Assembly: GCA_003140175.1 (NCBI GenBank)
Contig: PLJD01000096.1
Span: 16,324-80,323, forward strand
Source: Actinomycetota bacterium
GTDB lineage: Bacteria > Actinomycetota > Acidimicrobiia > IMCC26256 > PALSA-555
Reading direction: 5' to 3'
DNA length: 64,000 nucleotides
The translations under genes and the position numbers were made by a program. Positions 1 to 63,054 of the stretch are shown piece after piece (the stretch's first letter is position 1; each line of letters starts with the position of its first letter). The notes under the pieces were generated by a model. The model had not been told where the DNA came from and ran no database searches. It was given only the letters and a program-made list of their open reading frames with translations.

Positions 1-216
1 GCAGGCGCGGGCGCACACGTCGAGGATGGCGCGACGCTCATCGGCCTCGAGCAGCGGGGTCTCCCCGGTCGTGCCGAGCGGCACGAGGCCCGCCACGCCC
101 GCCTCGAGGTACCGCTCGGCGAGGCCGGCCAGGGCGTCGAGTGCGACCGACCCGTCGGACGCGAACGGGGTGATCAAGGGGATGTACACGCCGCGCAACG
201 TCGCGTCGGTTCCCAC
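1..216 (-). CDS. dapA: 4-hydroxy-tetrahydrodipicolinate synthase, 5' part (runs off the window edge)
   Basis: Manual minus-strand translation from GTG at 216: MGTDATLRGVYIPLITPFASDGSVALDALAGLAERYLEAGVAGLVPLGTTGE, with the DapA TPF and GTTGE motifs. Not in the ORF track. Confidence 0.85.
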   Translation of the reverse strand, partial: MGTDATLRGVYIPLITPFASDGSVALDALAGLAERYLEAGVAGLVPLGTTGETPLLEADERRAILDVCARAC

Positions 217-43359: not shown

Positions 43360-44485
43360 GTGACAGCTCGTGGTCTCTGCGATGCTGGTTCCGACGCGGA
43401 GCCGTTCGCGATCGTGCGCGACCGAAACTGCTATCAGATTGCTACCGAGCCGGTCGAGATTCTCTGCGGCTCCGGAAGGGATGTCGTCACTCGACTCGAT
43501 GAAGGTCCGCCGGGATGGTGGGCGGGGTACTTCGCCTACGAGTGGGGCCACTGCCTCGAGCGGGTTCGCGACTCGCGAATCAACCCGGACCCGTGCCCGG
43601 ATGTGACGTTGGTGCGTTTCAATCGAGTGCGCCCGCTCACCTTGGCAACCAAACGACCCGAGCGTCGATCCTCGGATCCTCTTCCCTGGGCGTCGAGCAT
43701 TGACCGGGACGGCTTCTGCGAGAAGGTTCACGCCATTCATCGCCTGATCCGCGACGGGGTCTGCTATCAGGTCAACCTCACGCGTCGCCTGTCAATGTCG
43801 CAGCGGATCGACCCGGGAGCGCTGTTCGAAGCGCTCGAAAGCATCAACCCGTCGCCGCGCTCGTTCCTGCTGTCATTCGGAGATACGGCCGTCGTGTCAG
43901 CCTCACCCGAACGATTCCTTTGCCGAGACGGCCCGCGTATCGCGACCTGCCCAATCAAGGGGACCGGCACAGTAGCGGAGGTGTTGCTGGCCAGCGCAAA
44001 AGATCGAACTGAGAACGTGATGATCGTCGATCTGGCCCGGAACGATCTCGGGCCGGATCTGTGAGCCGGGCTCCATCAGTGTCCCGGCCCTGTGTCGTCC
44101 CGAGCGTTACCCGGGAGTTGTGCACCTGGTCAGTACCGTGACGGGAAGTCTCCGGCCCGATGTCGGGACCGCCGGCATGCTGCAGGCACTGTTCCCACCA
44201 GCGTCGATCACCGGAGCACCCAAGCCGAGCGTCATGCAGGCGATCGTGGACTTGGAGCCGGTTCCCCGAGGCGTCTACTGCGGCGCGATCGGATGGATCG
44301 ACACGCAACGTCAACGAGCCGCACTCTCCGTTGCGATCCGGACTTTCATGGTCGGCTCCCACACCACGACGCTGGGCGTCGGCGCCGGCATCACGATCGA
44401 CTCACAGCCCGCCGCTGAATGGCGAGAGACCGAGCTCAAGGCCCAGAACCTGCTCAAGGCCGCCGCATACGCCCACGCGACCTGA
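43360..44485 (+). pseudogene. pabB: Aminodeoxychorismate synthase component I, frameshifted
   Basis: YQVNL, SPERF, PIKGT and ENVMIVDLARNDLG in one frame, then ICEPGS...HLVS, PPASITGAPK, YCGAIG and AIRT in the next; extra G in ctcGGGccgg at about 44050. Confidence 0.85.
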
Positions 44486-49229: not shown

Positions 49230-49808
49230 GTGGGCCCAAGCCAACTGTCGACGGGAGTGTTCCGCCAGGCAACGTCTTTTCCTATAGATACCGACATCGT
49301 CGTCGGATGCCTCGACGGATTGGATCCCCGCGATCAGCTCTTTCTTCGTGCCTTGAATTCGGGGATTCGGACTCTTTCGCCTTGCGAGCGCGCGGTTGTA
49401 GCGCCTGTCACTGGTCACGTGGCCGAGTCGGTCGTCGAGCTGATGTTGGACGGCCTCGGCTGGCATGTCTTGTGGCATTTCGCAGGCCCGGGCCTCCACG
49501 GTGTCGACCTGGTGTTCTTGACAGCCGACAATCGCGTCGTCGCTGTTGAGGTCAAGGGGACGCTTGTCTCCGGCCGGATGGCGCGGCTTTCCCGTCGCGA
49601 GGTTGAACAGATGACCGCCGCATGGCTAGATGATCCCGCCAACCCTGGCATGGCCGAACTCGGACTCGACAGTGCCGATGTGTATGGAGCGGTTGTGGTC
49701 GTCAACTTCGCCGATCTGATCTGGCGTTGCGCGCTGACAGCCGATTTCGCCGTGCTACACCCGGTCGGCACGCTCGATCAGCTGGCTGATCTCACTTGGC
49801 TGACCTAA
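49230..49808 (+). CDS. PD-(D/E)XK nuclease-like protein
   Basis: GHVAE...HGVDLV......VAVEVKGT. Confidence 0.7.
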   Translation: MGPSQLSTGVFRQATSFPIDTDIVVGCLDGLDPRDQLFLRALNSGIRTLSPCERAVVAPVTGHVAESVVELMLDGLGWHVLWHFAGPGLHGVDLVFLTADNRVVAVEVKGTLVSGRMARLSRREVEQMTAAWLDDPANPGMAELGLDSADVYGAVVVVNFADLIWRCALTADFAVLHPVGTLDQLADLTWLT

Positions 49809-49900
49809 CTGCCAACCCCGAATGTCTCCGGCTCGCTTGCGACGTCACAAACACCATCCCGGTCAGGACCGGTTCGATGGATCCGTCTCCTGAAAGCCGT

Positions 49901-50050
49901 TACTTCAGCCAAGTGGAACGGGGCGTCGACGGAACCCACTACAAGGGCTCGGCCGAGCATCTACGCCGCTACCTAGCCGAATTTCGATTCCACTACTCGA
50001 CTCTCGCAAAATCCGCGGCACTCCGCATGGATCGGCAGCTGGCCTACAAC
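49901..50050 (+). pseudogene. IS1595-family transposase C-terminal relic
   Basis: YFSQVERGVDGTHYKGSAEHLRRYLAEFRFHYST resembles the IS1595 FSxLKRxxxGTxHxVSxxHLxRYLxEFxFRY signature. Confidence 0.7.
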
Positions 50051-50065
50051 GACCCCGCGCCAGGA

Positions 50066-51547
50066 TCAGGCCGTCGCCGCCTGGTCACTAGCAATCAATT
50101 CGCCGACCGATGGCAGATCCTCAGGCTTGCGCATTGGCGGCAGGGGCAGGTCCTCCACGTTGTTGGGCTGCGGCCCGGGGGTCGCGACCGCACCAAAGGG
50201 GCGCCGCTGGAGCATCAGGGCCTCGGCTGCCTTGACGAGGTGAATCGTCAGACCCTCCTGCCGTACTCGGGCCGCCTCGTCGACTGCGCCCTTCGTGAAG
50301 CTGAATGCTATGACGTAACCCGTGTCGTTCCCGGCTCGCCTGATGGCAGTCTCGAAGTTGTCAATGATATTGCGTCCGACGTGTTCCGATTGCTTCACCT
50401 GAACGGGATCGCGGGTGAAGAACCAGTAGCCGTCAATTCCCATGTCCCCAGTTCGTTTTGCTGAATGCGTCCCGTTGATTGCGTTGATTGCCCAGTTCTG
50501 AAACTCGAAGGGCTTCAACGTTTTGAGGTCCGCAACCGTCGATGGGGTGTTCACGACGACAGGACTCGAGTGAAGCTTGAGTAGCCGTCGCTTCATTATC
50601 TCGATGGCGGTCAAGGAAATGTCGATCCCGACCCACTGACGCTTTAGGCGCTCCGCTACGGCGACCGTCGTTCCACAGCCGCAAAATGGGTCCAGGACGA
50701 TGTCACCGGGATTGCTGCTCGCGAGGATTATCCGTTCGAGAAGTGCTTCGGGCTTCTGAGTTGGGTATCCCAACCGTTCGGCCGCCTGCGGATTGATCCG
50801 GTCGATGTCGGTCCATACGTCATCGACGGCCTTACCCTTGAGGTCTTCGCGGTATCGCTTATGTTGGGGCCAGCCCGTGCCTCGGGATGGCCAATAGATG
50901 AGACCTTGCGAGTCGAGTATTTCGAGCTCGTCCGGTGCGACCATCCAGTGGCGATTCTTCGGCGAGGGATCCAGTCCGCGCCAGGGTTGGCCCGACGCGC
51001 CATGACGGACGCCGGCGCCAGTTAGATCGGCCCGCCAATAGAGCCGCCCGTCGCCGTCGTCGTATTTGTAATACCGGTCGAGATATTCCTGGTCGTAGTC
51101 CGTTCGTGGTGCGTTCCACGTCACCTTCTTGGACCGCCCGTAATAGAGGATCAAATCGTGAACCGGGCCATACCGCTTCGCGCTGCTGTGTGCAGTCGTT
51201 CGCTTCCAGACCACTTCGTTTCGGAACATCCCACCACCGAAGACCTGGTCAAGCATGACCTTGAGGTAATGGCTCGCGTGCGGATCGCAATGAAGGTAGA
51301 GCGAACCGGTGGGCTTGAGGACACGGCGCAATTGGTCAATGCGCTCGCGCATCCATCCGATGTAGTGCTGGATGCCGCCCTCCCAGCGGTCCTCAAACGA
51401 GCGCACCTCGGCCTCGTCTCCCCAGATCACCTCGTATACCCGGTTCGAGAAGAACGGAGGATCGAGGTAGATCAGATCGACCGACTCATCCGGCAAGGTG
51501 CCCAGCCGCGCCAGATTGTCGTCGCAGTAGAGAACACCCGTATCCAT
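50066..51547 (-). CDS. N6/N4 DNA methyltransferase (beta class) fused to an Mrr-like endonuclease domain
   Basis: IYLDPPF, YPTQKP, DPFCGCGTT; C-terminal EFQNW...DMGIDG...QVK. Confidence 0.9.
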   Translation of the reverse strand: MDTGVLYCDDNLARLGTLPDESVDLIYLDPPFFSNRVYEVIWGDEAEVRSFEDRWEGGIQHYIGWMRERIDQLRRVLKPTGSLYLHCDPHASHYLKVMLDQVFGGGMFRNEVVWKRTTAHSSAKRYGPVHDLILYYGRSKKVTWNAPRTDYDQEYLDRYYKYDDGDGRLYWRADLTGAGVRHGASGQPWRGLDPSPKNRHWMVAPDELEILDSQGLIYWPSRGTGWPQHKRYREDLKGKAVDDVWTDIDRINPQAAERLGYPTQKPEALLERIILASSNPGDIVLDPFCGCGTTVAVAERLKRQWVGIDISLTAIEIMKRRLLKLHSSPVVVNTPSTVADLKTLKPFEFQNWAINAINGTHSAKRTGDMGIDGYWFFTRDPVQVKQSEHVGRNIIDNFETAIRRAGNDTGYVIAFSFTKGAVDEAARVRQEGLTIHLVKAAEALMLQRRPFGAVATPGPQPNNVEDLPLPPMRKPEDLPSVGELIASDQAATA

Positions 51548-57952: not shown

Positions 57953-58558
57953 TTGCAGATGGCCCAGTTCGCGGTTGAAGCAGTGGAATGGCGAACGGAA
58001 GACGAGGGTGTACTGAAGGTGAGCTGCTTGTCACTCGGTGATTACAAAGCGCTCGTCGCGCATCTGTCGGAGGATCGCCCGGCAAACCTGCTTGTCAACC
58101 AGGTGGCTGTCGCCGTCAGCGCCGTGTCCGACCAACCCGACCATCCGTCCTCGGCATTTCCCGGAACGTTCGAAGTTCGCGTCCGCCGCAACGAGCTGCC
58201 CCCGAACTCGACACGGTGGATATTCGCCGTTGGCAGCAACTTTCTCCGCACCTCCGCATACATGGGCGTCGTTGAGATCACATGGCAGGGATCGGGCCGC
58301 CGCCGACGAGCAGAGCTGCTCGTTCGCTGCGAGATCGCCGACGAGTACACGCAACTTCGCCATCTGCTCGACGTTGAGCCGAGCCACGCGTCGATGATGA
58401 CGGATCCTCGCGGAGGCGGCTGGTACGTCTACCGAGTGAGCGATACCGGCAGCTCTGACGACCCGTTCCCGCAGGTGTTACAGCTCGTAGTTCAAGAGGT
58501 CCCTCCCGAGGAGCGCGAGGTGCCCACCTTTCCGATGGGCTTCCCGCCCGGCGATTGA
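57953..58558 (+). CDS. Hypothetical protein
   Basis: Protein-like 201-aa ORF with GAGGAAGG upstream. Confidence 0.6.
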   Translation: MQMAQFAVEAVEWRTEDEGVLKVSCLSLGDYKALVAHLSEDRPANLLVNQVAVAVSAVSDQPDHPSSAFPGTFEVRVRRNELPPNSTRWIFAVGSNFLRTSAYMGVVEITWQGSGRRRRAELLVRCEIADEYTQLRHLLDVEPSHASMMTDPRGGGWYVYRVSDTGSSDDPFPQVLQLVVQEVPPEEREVPTFPMGFPPGD

Positions 58559-58679
58559 CCGACCGACGGTCCGTGTTCGCATCGAGTGGGCATCCGAATG
58601 AGTCCGGTACCCCCTAGATGTGGTGGCCGGGCCCACAACGCAAACAGCCCCAGGAGCTGTTGCTTGATTGAGATCCTCT

Positions 58680-58849
58680 GCGAGGCTTTGGCCCGGTACT
58701 CGTCAAGAGCGTGCTCAGGGATGTGAGCAATCCCATTGATCATCACCTAGCGAACCTTGCGCTCGTAGACCAGACCCAGGATCTCTTTGGTCGGCATGTC
58801 GAGCCAGCGAACAGCTCCAGATGCTCGCAGGCTCTCAACTGCCGCGCAT
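58680..58849 (-). pseudogene. Small excisionase-like HTH protein, disrupted
   Basis: LRASGAVRWLDMPTKEILGLVYERKVR*VMINGIAHIPEHALDEYRA; internal TAG and an out-of-frame ATG. Confidence 0.55.
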
Positions 58850-58875
58850 AGGTCATTCCTGTCGCGGGTCCGCGA

Positions 58876-59139
58876 CTACGCGGCCACGCTGTACCGCATC
58901 CAGGGGATACGAGCCGGATCGATGTGGCTCAGAAAGTCGACGATGTCCCGATGTCCCCAGTAGGTCGGCACGCCCCGCGCGTCTTGCGCCATCAGCACGA
59001 TCGGCATCAGACCCAAAGCCTGCTGCCCGAAGGTCACCATGTTGGTGCGATCGCTAGAGCTGTTCAGGACGGAGGGTTTGCATACGACGATCCCAAACGT
59101 CACGCCCTGTTCTTTGATGACGGCGCCCTCGAAATGCAT
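58876..59139 (-). CDS. Small hypothetical protein
   Basis: MHFEGAVIKEQGVTFGIVV...PIVLMAQD.RG.PTYWG.RDIV.FL..I....IPW; AAGGAG RBS. Confidence 0.8.
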   Translation of the reverse strand: MHFEGAVIKEQGVTFGIVVCKPSVLNSSSDRTNMVTFGQQALGLMPIVLMAQDARGVPTYWGHRDIVDFLSHIDPARIPWMRYSVAA

Positions 59140-59264
59140 CCAAGTCTCCTTTGCCTTGAGTTCGAGCCTTACGAGTATCCAGCCCAGGTGCGACGTCCCG
59201 AGGTGACCAGGCCTTGAACGGGAGCGGCCGGCTGTCCGATATCGGCCCTTGTCTCGTTGGCTCC

Positions 59265-59543
59265 CTAGTACGTCGGAAGACTCAGGAGGTCGTTGCTGGG
59301 GTTGCCGTCCCGGTGGGTACGCAGGTACGGCTCTCCGACACGGGGACGGACGACTTGGACGATGGCGGGACCTTGTTCGCCGGCTACCTGAAGGGTGTTG
59401 CCATCGTCGATGAACTTGACCATCGTGGCCCGCGGGGCGCTCTTGCTCACGCCGTTGCGACAATCCACCCAACGCACACTGGCGATGTTCTCGTGCTGAC
59501 GGGTCCCGTTGAACTGCACCGCCGTGATGAAAATCACCTTCAC
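59265..59543 (-). CDS. DUF3892 family protein
   Basis: ITAV...HENI..VRW...YLRT..DG...NDLLSLP. Confidence 0.85.
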   Translation of the reverse strand: MKVIFITAVQFNGTRQHENIASVRWVDCRNGVSKSAPRATMVKFIDDGNTLQVAGEQGPAIVQVVRPRVGEPYLRTHRDGNPSNDLLSLPTY

Positions 59544-59579
59544 CGTCCCTGGGCCTAAGGGCTTTTCGTGCCAGATCTG

Positions 59580-59620
59580 TTGATGTACGCCAGAGTATCT
59601 ATTAGCCTAGAGGACGTCAA
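59580..59620. promoter_or_regulatory. Overlapping divergent sigma70 promoters
   Basis: + strand TTGATG(59580)-N17-TAGCCT; - strand TTGACG(59620)-N17-TACTCT. Confidence 0.65.
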
Positions 59621-59642
59621 GTGTTCTTGCACCGAGGGAGAC

Positions 59643-61172
59643 ATGAGACTTGGCGGCGTCGCCGAAGTGGCCGGGGAGTTAGGCGTTAGTCGCCAACGGG
59701 CCTCGCAATTGCGTGGCGTCACCGGGTTCCCGGCGCCCGTCGGCACCATTGCGGCAGGCCCAATCTGGGATCTTGACGGCGTGGCCAGTTGGGCGACCTC
59801 TGCGCTGCGCCGCCGCGGTGGGCGGCCCAGCAAGGCGACGAAGCGCCGAGTTTTCGATGGTCGGTTCGCACTCGAGGAGCCTGCGATAGGGGCGGGAGGC
59901 TTCGCAGACGTCTACCGAGCGCTGGATCTCGAGGTCTCTTCGTCCACCGAGGACCCTGTCGTCGCGGTCAAAGTCTTGCGTGAACTCCGTGAAGAAGAAG
60001 TCCGGCGTCGCTTCACGCGAGAGCTACGAATCGTGTCGTCGCTGTCGCACCCCGGCGTAGTCCGCATCCTCGCCAGCGGTGAAGACGACGAGGGGCACCT
60101 TTGGTACGCGATGCCTCTAGCCAAGAGCAGCCTGGCGGACGAGTTACCGCAATTCGTCGGCAAAGAAAAGCAGATCGTCGAACTGATGCGACAGCTCTGT
60201 GAGGCACTCGGGTACGTGCACGAAGAAGGGGTGTTCCACCGCGATATCAAGCCCGCCAACATTCTGCGAACCCGCTCGGGCAACTGGGCACTCACCGACT
60301 TTGGCCTCGCGCGAGAAGCAGAGCGCACCACAACAGCACTCACGTCAACGCACCAAGGGGTGGGCACATGGGTTTACGCCTCACCCGAAACATGGCAGGG
60401 GGCCATAGGCGCTGAGGCACCGGCCGACGTGTACAGCCTCGGCAAGGTGCTGCAAGAGCTGATCACTGGGTCGATGCCTGTGTCGCCTGAGCCGCCTTCC
60501 GGAGTCTTTGCGCCCGTCATCCGGCGGGCAACCAGAGCCGATGCGCAACAGCGATACCAGGCCGCTTCTGAGTTTCTCCAGGCGGTCGAAAGAGCGGCGG
60601 CAGCACCCACCAAGCGTTGGGAGGCTCCGGACGAGGTGGAGGACCGGCTCCGGGACGCGATACGAGGTGGAGAGCCCGACGACGCCTCCCTATCTGAGCT
60701 GATCCAGATCGGACTGGCCAACATTCGAGCCGTCCGAATGGTCGTTCCTCACCTGTCCGCAGTGGGCTGTGAACGGCTGTGGAGCCGCGATCCGGACGGT
60801 TTTCGGGGTCTTGTGGAGCGCTACGCAGCTCACGCCTCGGACGCACCCTGGCCCTTCGAGTTTTGTGATGTGATCGCAGACTTCTGCGATCGAGCAGTGC
60901 GCATAACGGGCGACCCTGATGTGCTTCGCGCCTCCATTGGTTGCCTCGCCGAGATGGGGGCAGATCACAATCGGTGGCACGTTCAGGACGTCTGCGTCGT
61001 GCTACTACAGCGAGTGCGAGAGACTCCCGACGCTCTCGCAGCTCTCGAAGGTCTCCGTGATGCCGCCCCGTCAGCAGTCAGATGGACGCTCAGCGACTTT
61101 GCCGTTCGTTCGCTTCATCCCGTATTACGTCAAGGCATCGAGAACGAGATCTTGTTGCAACTATCTGATTAG
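59643..61172 (+). CDS. AlpA-like HTH fused to a Hanks-type Ser/Thr kinase with a helical C-terminal domain
   Basis: GVAEVAGELGVSRQR...FPAP...GPIW; GAGGFADV, VAVK, HRDIKPAN, DFGL, ASPE, DVYSLG; GAGGGAG RBS. Confidence 0.9.
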   Translation: MRLGGVAEVAGELGVSRQRASQLRGVTGFPAPVGTIAAGPIWDLDGVASWATSALRRRGGRPSKATKRRVFDGRFALEEPAIGAGGFADVYRALDLEVSSSTEDPVVAVKVLRELREEEVRRRFTRELRIVSSLSHPGVVRILASGEDDEGHLWYAMPLAKSSLADELPQFVGKEKQIVELMRQLCEALGYVHEEGVFHRDIKPANILRTRSGNWALTDFGLAREAERTTTALTSTHQGVGTWVYASPETWQGAIGAEAPADVYSLGKVLQELITGSMPVSPEPPSGVFAPVIRRATRADAQQRYQAASEFLQAVERAAAAPTKRWEAPDEVEDRLRDAIRGGEPDDASLSELIQIGLANIRAVRMVVPHLSAVGCERLWSRDPDGFRGLVERYAAHASDAPWPFEFCDVIADFCDRAVRITGDPDVLRASIGCLAEMGADHNRWHVQDVCVVLLQRVRETPDALAALEGLRDAAPSAVRWTLSDFAVRSLHPVLRQGIENEILLQLSD

Positions 61173-61559
61173 TTCTATCGCGCCACAACGCTGCGCAGAA
61201 CGGGCCAGACGCGCCGGTGCCAGCCCAGTGCGGCCAATACCACTCTCTCCATTCCAGGCGACGTCGTAACTCCCCCAACCTGGCAGAATCGCACCAATGC
61301 TCGTGATGATGGGAAGTCGTGGCGACTCACCCTCCGCGAACAATTTTGAGCGCTCGTGCCAGTTGCTCGAATTCAGCCGCCTGAGCCGTCGAGCTGATAC
61401 GCGATCGGATAGTGCGCACGAGTTCCAAATCGGCCTCGGTCCCTTCTTTCTTGACCAGGTCGCGATTGTTCAGCGGCCGCTGCGTATTGGTATCGGTGGT
61501 CATGACCCCCTCCTCTGCCATCGCCTCTAGCATCGGAACTCAAAATGGAGGGATGACTG

Positions 61560-61856
61560 ATGACATGGATCTCGACGACTGATCCGGGTAATGACGCAGA
61601 TCGGATGCTCCTAAATCTGAGCTTCGTCAGTCAGATTCGTGTAGAGGAAGACCGCGACCTTGGGCGCTTCCAGCTCGTTGCGCTTCCCTTTCAGCCGATA
61701 GTTGGACCGAGCGCAGCTGCCTGGCAGCCTGCTGTGCTCGCCACGTTCACCAGAAGGGGTGACGCCGACGGGGCGTTGAATACCCTCATCGAGAGCCTGT
61801 CGGCGGTCGATGCCGTCATCCGGCTTGAGCCGGGTGACAGCGCCACGCTCGCCTAG
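61560..61856 (+). CDS. Hypothetical protein
   Basis: GGAGGG RBS; protein-like 98-aa ORF. Confidence 0.6.
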   Translation: MTWISTTDPGNDADRMLLNLSFVSQIRVEEDRDLGRFQLVALPFQPIVGPSAAAWQPAVLATFTRRGDADGALNTLIESLSAVDAVIRLEPGDSATLA

Positions 61857-61900
61857 CCGAAAGACTCACTCGTTGCCCTCGGCGGCGGAGGGGATGCCCG

Positions 61901-62725
61901 GTGCCTCAATCTGGTCGGCTTGCTGGATGTTGGGCAAAGCTGGAACGGGCCAAACACCATCTGGACGATCTCTACGTCGAGATCCTTGAGTGGGGGGTCG
62001 GAGATGCGACGGATGTACCACCACCGGTCGGCAAGCGCTACGACGCGAACGAAGGCTGTTTCATTTACTTCAATACCGAAGTCACCGACACCCCCACTAG
62101 CTGGAGTTTGATCGCCGGGGACGCGATCAACAACCTGCGCGGCGCGCTCGACCATCTCGCGTGGGTTCTGAGCGACTTCGGGGCGCACACCAACAACAAG
62201 GATCACGTATCGTTCCCCATCTGCTGGGAGCCGAATAGAGCTGACGCTGATATTGGGCGACGCATCCCCGGCATCGACACGACTCACAAGGCAATCATCA
62301 AGAGATATCAGCCGTGTACGCGTACGGGGCCGCTCCGTAAGGCACATCCGTTCGGCATTCTTCAAACCCTCTCCAATGACGACAAGCACCGAAAACTGCT
62401 GATACTCCCAGGCCGGAACTACCAGTGCTTCGTCAAGCTCCCCAGTGAGTACCCCGACTTCAACGTCACACACACGGCCGTGCGGTCCCCCACTGGCCAG
62501 CCCCCCTCCGGCGGGAAGATCGAAGGTGCTGACTTCACACCGGGCGCAGAGCTTTTGAAGATCTGTGGTGAGCCCATTCCGGGGAGAGACCCGGATGTGA
62601 AAGTGGAATGGACATGCAGGGGCACGGTCGTGTTCGCCGAGACCGATCGAGGGGTTGATACCACGCTCAACGAGATCGCGGCGCTCGCCACCCAACTCCT
62701 GAACGAGTTCGACACCCTTGTCTAG
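61901..62725 (+). CDS. Hypothetical protein, HEPN-like
   Basis: KLERAKHHL, GDAINNLRGALDHL, FPI, LSNDDKHR. Confidence 0.7.
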   Translation: MPQSGRLAGCWAKLERAKHHLDDLYVEILEWGVGDATDVPPPVGKRYDANEGCFIYFNTEVTDTPTSWSLIAGDAINNLRGALDHLAWVLSDFGAHTNNKDHVSFPICWEPNRADADIGRRIPGIDTTHKAIIKRYQPCTRTGPLRKAHPFGILQTLSNDDKHRKLLILPGRNYQCFVKLPSEYPDFNVTHTAVRSPTGQPPSGGKIEGADFTPGAELLKICGEPIPGRDPDVKVEWTCRGTVVFAETDRGVDTTLNEIAALATQLLNEFDTLV

Positions 62726-63054
62726 CCGCTCACAGCGCGTCGCCAGCGGCGGATACTCTCGCGGCATGAGGCCCCGAGTGATCGACCCAAAGAGCTTCCT
62801 GCCCACAGCGTGGCGGATCGCCTACGACCTGTTGCTCAACAAGGCGGACTACCCGCGGCTTGCTTCCCGCGTCACCCAGTCGGGCCCTGCGGTCAGCGCC
62901 GTGCTCATGAACGACGGCCTGCTCTAGCCGCCAACCCGACCAACGATCTGACGTACACCCCGACGACCCGCACCCCGATACGTCGGGGCGCCACCGCCGC
63001 GAGTTTCGACAAACGCTCCTCGGGATCGTCGTGCGTTCTCATCGACCAGCGACT

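Follow-up and report, generated by a model that had tools for sequence, protein, structure and literature searches.

The stretch analysed here, called the window, comprises 64,000 nucleotides (nt) of contig PLJD01000096.1 from the Actinomycetota assembly GCA_003140175.1. Near its right end, a plus-strand gene (59643..61172; 509 amino acids (aa) plus stop) encodes a helix-turn-helix (HTH) domain fused to a Hanks-type kinase and a C-terminal helical repeat of armadillo (ARM)/HEAT-like form. Facing it on the minus strand are a DUF3892 gene with a GTG start (59265..59543, 92 aa), the gene for an 87-aa protein, p87 (58876..59139), and an unrecognisable open reading frame (ORF) remnant (58492..58875). 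A candidate operator (59579..59621, assigned to neither strand) covers two face-to-face candidate promoters between the two sets of genes. The HTH-kinase is probably a repressor both of its own promoter and of the one that serves the neighbouring small-gene cassette, and could represent a type of defence regulator not described before.

The kinase gene lies in an open frame of 534 aa (59568-61172, plus strand). Its start is taken as ATG 59643 because 18 of 26 aligned homologues begin at the equivalent M/I/V-R-[LMV]-G-G, the others starting 2 or 5 residues further in or 6-8 upstream, and because GAGGGAG precedes it at 59634-59640. Read on the plus strand, the protein consists of an AlpA-type winged HTH assigned from profile and model (residues 1-56, 59643-59810), a basic linker with G60-R61-P62 invariant in an alignment of 27 members (residues 57-68, 59811-59846), the Hanks kinase matched by Pfam Pkinase (residues ~69-345, 59847-60677) and the ARM/HEAT-like repeat assigned from the model (residues ~346-509, 60678-61169). 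The AlphaFold2 (AF2) model of the whole protein has a predicted local distance difference test score (pLDDT) of 84.3. Residues 1-66 match no Pfam family over cut-off, YdaS_toxin (E 0.016) and Sigma70_r4 (E 0.079) remaining below threshold; a profile of this region from 25 members matches PDB 8c3t_A, an 'AlpA family phage regulatory protein' (E 4.9e-6). The AF2 topology, strand-helix-helix-strand-strand-helix, has the winged-helix order. The invariant G-R-P in its basic context resembles an AT-hook core, and through it the linker might contact the minor groove in AT-hook fashion at the A/T-rich centre of the operator.

The catalytic domain matches Pkinase (PF00069) at E 1.2e-38, with 133.5 bits against a cut-off of 31.7. 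K110, E127, H199-R200-D201, N206, D219-F220-G221 and P248-E249 are invariant in the 27 aligned sequences, and we take them to be the lysine of the VAIK motif, the alphaC glutamate, the HRD motif, the catalytic Asn, the DFG motif and the APE motif, respectively. Judged on its sequence, the domain is an intact Hanks-type Ser/Thr protein kinase. An earlier note on this DNA had described an AlpA-like HTH fused to an intact Hanks kinase, and this description is borne out by the 8c3t_A profile match, the Pkinase match and the invariant catalytic residues.

The last ~165 residues, described in that note as a helical domain, indeed form an all-alpha repeat in a model of the domain (pLDDT 95.4), with only generic likeness to ARM/HEAT solenoids. 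The best Foldseek match has E 0.041 (designed helical-repeat and armadillo proteins), VIA Z reaches 8.9, a level unspecific for repeats, and a sequence profile of the domain finds nothing under E 0.02 in the PDB. The domain profile matches 631 representative clusters; among 19 clusters examined, 10 have a Pfam hit, in every case to a kinase, and most of the others are probably fragments, given their shortness. In a sister family, proteins of ~430-446 aa combine the kinase with the same C-terminal repeat and have no N-terminal HTH (six of six: P0305, P0307, P0310, P0321, P0329 and P0340).

With the kinase protein as query, 8000 candidates were scored and 1114 of them reach E<=0.001. Query coverage is 97% or more in 116 of the 120 best matches, which share 45-55% identity and are ~505-560 aa long. 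The three-part architecture of ~515 aa, and with it the fusion seen in the earlier note, is conserved. Named sources of matches are Acidimicrobiales, Frankia, Streptomyces, Rhodococcus, Leucobacter, Mycobacterium (on a plasmid) and a Dehalococcoidia metagenome-assembled genome. The distribution is sporadic: in a survey of 401 genomes of the phylum, with three candidates scored per genome, a full-length match (E<=1e-60) occurs only in the window's own genome.

Opposite the kinase, the DUF3892 protein matches PF13031 at E 5.6e-12 (46.4 bits against a cut-off of 22.3) and occupies an orthologous position at two loci of relatives, L049 and L001/L015. p87 belongs to a conserved family without a Pfam model, recognised through 550 homologue clusters; its members reach Bacillota and Pseudomonadota, with 52-77% identity among the 119 best matches listed. 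The Atlas model of p87 has a pLDDT of 0.84. Atlas gives only unnamed clusters, and one 338-aa adenylate/guanylate-cyclase cluster aligns at a TM-score of 0.66, which is a lead only. No p87 was found in 50,697 phage records. The Pfam match and the 550 clusters thus confirm both DUF3892 and a real 87-aa gene opposite the kinase.

The third minus-strand frame (58492-58875) is interrupted at 58747-58749 by an in-frame TAG, which recurs in DNA contigs from two other runs that show 0 differences. Earlier presented as a disrupted small HTH gene, it is a stop-interrupted frame without a Pfam family match and is not recognisable as an HTH gene; a reading by eye as a 'Myb-like' gene failed a profile test. 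A 68-aa family stands after p87 in two related loci (L058 and L059), and the frame is identical to it at 10 of 15 positions towards the C-terminus (BLASTP E 0.008; hhalign probability 3.7%). Given this match and the synteny with both loci, the frame could be what remains of such a 68-aa gene after decay.

Metatranscriptome contigs from two runs are identical to the window at 58595-58942, 58790-59070, 59278-59532, 59626-59836, 59989-60170 and 60431-60583, touching with 0 differences parts of the p87, DUF3892 and kinase genes. They leave 59533-59625 uncovered, a gap unusable as evidence on transcription starts.

The intergenic region carries the proposed control elements. On the plus strand, TTGATG (59580-85) and TAGCCT (59603-08) stand 17 nt apart and would open a kinase transcription unit (59579..61172) with a short leader, a ribosome-binding site (RBS) at 59634-40 and the coding sequence. 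On the minus strand, TTGACG (59620-15) and TACTCT (59597-92), again 17 nt apart, form the candidate promoter of the DUF3892 cassette (59592..59620). Hexamers and spacers are exactly as the earlier note described them, but the pair reaches only 7/12 and 8/12 consensus matches, below the threshold of a sigma-70 scan. In actinobacteria, -10 boxes follow a TANNNT rule, and only under this looser rule is the pair acceptable. The pattern TTGA[CT][AG]-16..18-TANNNT, which was set post hoc after the site had been seen, has three occurrences in the 64 kb when both strands are counted, the divergent pair accounting for two of them.

The -35 boxes had also been said to form an inverted repeat. Such a repeat is present (6 nt with one mismatch), its half-sites GTTGAT (59579-84) and GTCAAG (59616-21) being inverted over a 43-nt span, but it is weak in the window alone and gains meaning because relatives can be compared. 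Forty loci plus the window yield 32 non-redundant loci after loci with identical upstream sequence were merged (L001=L015, L021-24, L028=L030, L033=L040, L036=L037, L041=L047 and L043=L044). L048, L050, L051 and L053 were left out of the neighbourhood counts as fragments without an N-terminus or with almost no flank, as were L054-L056, weak matches to the kinase domain only.

GACAAC/GTTGTC occurs in 14 of 31 non-redundant upstream regions, with 21 copies against 1.7 expected, and CAACCA occurs in 15 of the 31; these two and AACCAT, each present in 13-15 loci, are 12- to 26-fold above locus background. Nine of the 31 loci have the outer inverted pattern TTGWB-N26-36-VWCAA, against an average of 1.0 and at most 5 in 300 dinucleotide shuffles. 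It begins at -58 to -70 from the start codon in eight loci, the window among them, with L041 outside this range at -100. A MAFFT consensus, GTTGA..GnCAACnATT..TATnGTTGnC..GnCAACnATT..RBS, resolves into two adjacent palindromes around a TATnGT -10 box, and the promoter layout of the window fits the family consensus GTTGAC..TATgGT..GACAAC..RBS. The 43-nt half-site span of the window compares with 44 nt in L018, L025 and L029, and the window's closest relatives have TGATGTAC ... GTCAAG/T in common. The repeat of the window thus corresponds to the outer half-sites of the family palindrome, and the 'inverted -35 boxes' are best read as candidate operator half-sites that double as -35 boxes.

A stand-alone 72-aa HTH paralogue (50% identity, E 4e-16) is encoded elsewhere in the window's genome, near a contig end (contig C16, 47127-47345, plus strand). 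Directly upstream of it (~60 nt) lies a near-perfect palindrome, TTGACAATCGACAAG-N10-CTTGTCGTATGTCAA, so the element travels with the HTH rather than with the kinase. Autoregulation of the kinase gene by its HTH is likely because the palindrome is conserved upstream of both the kinase genes and this paralogue. Putative sequence-specific DNA binding by the HTH has only indirect support from the conserved palindrome. The 'self-regulating' behaviour proposed for the locus thereby gains a family-wide palindromic element over the kinase promoter.

The genes around family members are rich in defence functions. A ResIII/Helicase_C protein of ~600 aa is encoded directly downstream in 11 of the 27 loci with at least 700 nt of downstream sequence, often followed by an ORF of 75-109 aa. 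A type I restriction-modification (R-M) unit, HsdR with an HsdM/S fusion, stands directly upstream in four of the 23 loci with at least 900 nt upstream. At one locus each, the direct downstream neighbour is a CAP12/Pycsar-type TIR, a SMODS or a Beta_protein gene, and PIN_3, YhcG nuclease, RelA_SpoT, Abi_2-like, integrase and ParB-like genes also occur nearby. One family member is on a Streptomyces plasmid. These neighbours, and a link between DUF3892 and divergent CapH/CapP regulators described in the consulted part of a published preprint, fit the defence or stress role that the earlier note proposed.

Divergent DUF3892 is found in three of the 27 loci with at least 400 nt upstream. The linkage that the note reported therefore recurs, but only within the subclade of the window, L001/L015 and L049, which fall together with L012 and L014 in a five-row kinase clade (support 97/95). 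At L001, DUF3892 is followed by two small ORFs and then Vsr and Dcm; at L049, it is followed by DUF6119 (E 1.4e-90). L014, with 361 nt of upstream sequence only, has instead a divergent 56-aa ORF (MTARFEIYEKSGWRWKL...), which may be YegP/DUF1508-like, and then the N-terminus of the 68-aa family (L014:1-270, minus strand). On a maximum-likelihood tree of 29 kinases, partner type clusters, with swaps within clades such as a TIR inside a helicase clade. All seven partner labels together need nine changes on this tree against a shuffled mean of 16.3, and none of 200 shuffles is as low.

The small proteins recur apart from the kinase. A second p87 copy in the window's genome (L058, C106:9808-13068; 71% identity) is followed by a 68-aa gene and is divergent from a 382-aa fusion of an XRE HTH and an M78 peptidase; a RHH/MazF toxin-antitoxin pair adjoins this cassette. 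The 68-aa family (L058:1264-1470, minus strand) comprises more than 6000 clusters from distant phyla, with 65-84% identity, 24 invariant positions and no Pfam model; a candidate assignment to SANT/Myb was discarded, the likeness being insignificant (E 0.28-0.58). In a genome of the same family, reading by eye places a DNA methylase-like gene opposite p87 and its 68-aa follower. On plasmid pRi1724, p87 follows DUF2188 opposite an ATPase and S8 peptidase pair; on Leptolyngbya pLBX it faces a MerR gene; and on a Fuscovulum plasmid its opposite neighbour is an operon with an ImmA/IrrE gene among its members.

DUF3892 occurs in 14 of the 401 phylum genomes, a count that, like one of 17 further loci, rests partly on a genome flagged as unpublished (G001). 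Three further copies are in the window's own genome (L080, L081 and L082, on contigs C113, C122 and C31). HTH_3 and M78 genes adjoin two of the three, divergently in L081 and co-directionally in L080. Each of the three copies also adjoins a DyP-type peroxidase-like gene, a pairing not mentioned in the consulted parts of the literature on DUF3892 cassettes. In the part of their preprint consulted (bioRxiv 10.1101/2022.04.27.489752), Lau et al. report that operons with DUF3892 and with DUF2188 have divergent neighbours of the CapH/CapP-like kind; for a predicted part in defence they refer to Burroughs & Aravind 2020 (J Bacteriol). A 2025 preprint, likewise consulted in part, describes a dsRBD/HPF-like fold for DUF3892 and proposes that it is an RNA or ribosome sensor. 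The window cassette is one of these DUF3892/DUF2188-type small-protein cassettes.

The reading that fits the evidence best, held at about even odds, is an autoregulated HTH-kinase switch that co-controls a putative defence or stress cassette. HTH dimers would bind the palindromic operator (GTTGAT ... GTCAAG), which overlaps the kinase promoter and the opposite-strand promoter of the DUF3892-then-p87 cassette; since the operator covers both promoters, both units would be held low and would be mutually exclusive for RNA polymerase. An infection- or stress-type signal, perceived through the ARM domain, might then activate the kinase, which has a T-rich activation loop, and phosphorylation could lift repression, act on cellular or phage targets, or both. 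The HTH-kinase would fill the regulator slot that is held elsewhere by an XRE protein with an M78 peptidase (CapH/CapP-like) or by MerR. We infer both the nature of the signal and the defence function. Phosphorylation of the small proteins by the kinase, a further proposal of the earlier note, finds nothing in the analysis to support it, and neither does binding to them; a predicted complex of kinase residues 66-509 with DUF3892 (score 0.01, mark 0.32) is evidence neither way.

Several observations count against the proposed co-control. A sigma-70 scan of 58400-61400, requiring at least 9/12 matches and at least 4/6 per hexamer, gives 0 sites. A repeat search finds no inverted repeat of at least 8 nt at the window site, where only the two outer half-sites survive. 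The transcription units of the window are read from the DNA letters only, the RNA-library contigs indicate presence only and may include DNA carry-over, and the 125-nt gap between DUF3892 and p87 makes their co-transcription putative only. At the 17 other DUF3892 loci of the phylum sample, neither this kinase nor p87 occurs within 1.5 kb, and the DUF3892 linkage, confined to one kinase subclade (three of 27), could be inherited synteny. The HTH-less sister family implies that the kinase-ARM core works without DNA binding; as between a kinase that chiefly controls adjacent genes and one that acts in defence itself, this family favours an autonomous kinase-ARM function. Matches to known defence kinases are also partial. 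The Stk2 match covers only profile positions 131-358 of 500 and is thus not a full-length similarity, and the PD-T4-6 match (PADLOC E 9.9e-56) is to the kinase domain only, where ordinary Hanks kinases might match as well.

One alternative is a stand-alone defence kinase, in which the HTH-kinase-ARM protein would itself be an abortive-infection or defence gene, like PD-T4-6 and Stk2 according to published reports, its HTH would only autoregulate, and DUF3892 and p87 would be an independent neighbouring module that shares the intergenic region. The existence of the kinase-ARM core without the HTH, the variation of neighbours expected for any defence-island gene, the rarity of DUF3892 linkage and the PD-T4-6 models as strongest PADLOC matches all speak for this explanation. 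However, both promoters lie within the same 41 bp, so any operator-bound protein would affect both. The divergent slot, moreover, is held by DUF3892 in the window and L001/L049 and by another small-protein cassette in L014 of the same subclade, and at other loci cassettes with p87 or DUF3892 typically have a divergent regulator as their partner. A stand-alone kinase is thus somewhat unlikely, yet it is the best placed of the alternatives to a shared switch.

That the protein is an ordinary signalling kinase and transcription factor of actinobacterial physiology, serving stress or development and unrelated to phage defence, is improbable. Hanks kinases are abundant in the genome, with 13 further kinase-like matches, and the defence role is argued from gene context; but the gene is sporadic in distribution and sits in a low-GC island, and its relatives, one of them on a plasmid, adjoin R-M, helicase, TIR, SMODS, PIN and Vsr/Dcm genes. 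Slightly less probable still is control of a mobile element, with the AlpA/excisionase-type HTH-kinase governing island excision, transfer or maintenance. Among solved structures the HTH is closest to a phage regulator of the AlpA family, L045 has an integrase nearby, ParB-like genes lie near L011 and L028, and the window island contains an IS1595-type fragment. Yet no integrase or attachment site adjoins the window gene up to the contig end, 139 nt past the window, the direct neighbours of most relatives are effectors rather than recombinases, and a search of 2.9 million viral contigs with two peptide patterns brought up no full-length relative. A toxin-antitoxin-like pair, in which the kinase would be a growth-arresting toxin of HipA-like logic and one small protein its antidote, is very improbable: kinase toxins with DNA-binding partners are known (HipAB and DS-6, in the sources consulted in part) and the small partners are conserved, but the kinase is Hanks-type rather than HipA-type, carries the HTH itself, and belongs to a family most of whose loci lack the small genes.

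The GC content of the window is ~73% at the left and falls to ~61% from about 46 kb up to the window end. Accessory genes in the low-GC part include an N6/N4 methylase-Mrr fusion, the IS1595-type fragment, a CAP-domain protein and a GDSL lipase. In the favoured reading, the locus is a module of a regulator and its divergent cargo, situated in a low-GC island that was probably acquired horizontally.

Other features of the window lie outside the module. The methylase-Mrr fusion is a 493-aa protein (50066-51547, minus strand) that joins an N6_N4 DNA methylase to an Mrr_cat nuclease domain and adjoins the IS1595-type transposase fragment (49796-50464). A chorismate-binding enzyme is split into two plus-strand ORFs (43360-44064 and 44120-44485, within 43360-44485), possibly by a frameshift or an assembly error; it lies upstream of the ~46-kb GC fall, at the left end of the low-GC island. 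Downstream of the kinase and co-directional with it are ORFs of 98 and 274 aa (61560-62725, plus strand). The 274-aa protein falls in unnamed, mostly actinobacterial Atlas clusters, and a 317-aa minus-strand ORF that overlaps it is probably spurious. No match in Pfam, PADLOC or NCBIfam was found for p87, the remnant ORF, p201, p98, p68, p274 or p317.

Kinases associated with defence are already known, and so, separately, are HTH regulators that stand divergent from defence cassettes. The apparently new element is that a single polypeptide joins predicted operator binding, a eukaryotic-like kinase and a repeat-type putative sensor, and is met with many effector types. In the literature searched on DUF3892 and on anti-phage Ser/Thr kinases, HTH proteins and defence islands, there seems to be no description of the fusion family, of its operator or of the way its effector partners change. 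More tentatively, AlpA-HTH/Hanks-kinase/ARM proteins could form a class of their own, not yet described, of modular transcriptional switches that are gated by phosphorylation and serve prokaryotic immunity, in which one conserved sensor-regulator with its own operator is repeatedly coupled to ResIII helicase, type I R-M, TIR, SMODS or DUF3892/p87, in a role like that of CapH/CapP or BrxR/CapW with phosphorylation as the signal; we consider this broader view rather less likely than the switch proposed for the window. If true, it would offer a tractable system for the phosphorylation gating of bacterial immune gene expression and a handle on three orphan families without an assigned function: DUF3892, p87 and the 68-aa family.

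Among known systems, the best structural match to the catalytic domain is Mycobacterium tuberculosis PknB (PDB 3oro, 5u94, 1o6y and others; TM-score by target 0.70-0.78, 28-30% identity). Unlike PknB, the window kinase has no transmembrane segment or PASTA domain, and its score with NCBIfam PknB_PASTA_kin, 167 bits, falls short of the cut-off of 450. The HTH resembles AlpA 8c3t_A over residues 12-62, sharing an FP.P...WD(L).V..W signature and the winged-helix topology, but it is fused to a 440-aa kinase-ARM body and has no Pfam AlpA or HTH_17 match over cut-off.

Stk2-like element-borne kinases mediate abortive infection. The staphylococcal Stk2 shares with the window protein a Hanks kinase domain in an accessory or defence context (PADLOC E 2e-36); the resemblance to this kinase, which the earlier note named as a known case, is confined to the generic kinase domain. 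PD-T4-6 is a single-gene Escherichia coli defence kinase, and we know of no AlpA HTH or ARM domain in either Stk2 or PD-T4-6. BREX PglW, MADS MAD6 and Mokosh MkoA also combine a Ser/Thr kinase with helicase or methylase partners, as do the helicase- and R-M-linked relatives, but the partner genes of these systems differ and none adjoin the window kinase; NCBIfam scores for PglW (53.3 vs 990) and MAD6 (107 vs 460) are far below the cut-offs.

The CapH/CapP pairs, with ImmR/ImmA and DdrO/IrrE, offer the comparison in layout. In the consulted part of the preprint, CapH/CapP-type pairs also stand divergent from CBASS and DISARM operons (Lau et al., 10.1101/2022.04.27.489752), and their likeness to the window locus is an HTH regulator upstream of and opposite a small-protein or defence cargo that includes DUF3892. 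By gene order and strands, the window has this layout, with its regulator divergent from a DUF3892-type cargo. An XRE HTH and an M78 metallopeptidase, both present at L058, L080 and L081, were not found in the scanned ORFs of 57953-62806 (the kinase, DUF3892, p87, the remnant, a 42-aa stretch at 58747-58875 and five flanking ORFs). The signal-responsive part in the window would instead be the Hanks kinase and ARM repeat, with control by phosphorylation rather than by repressor cleavage.

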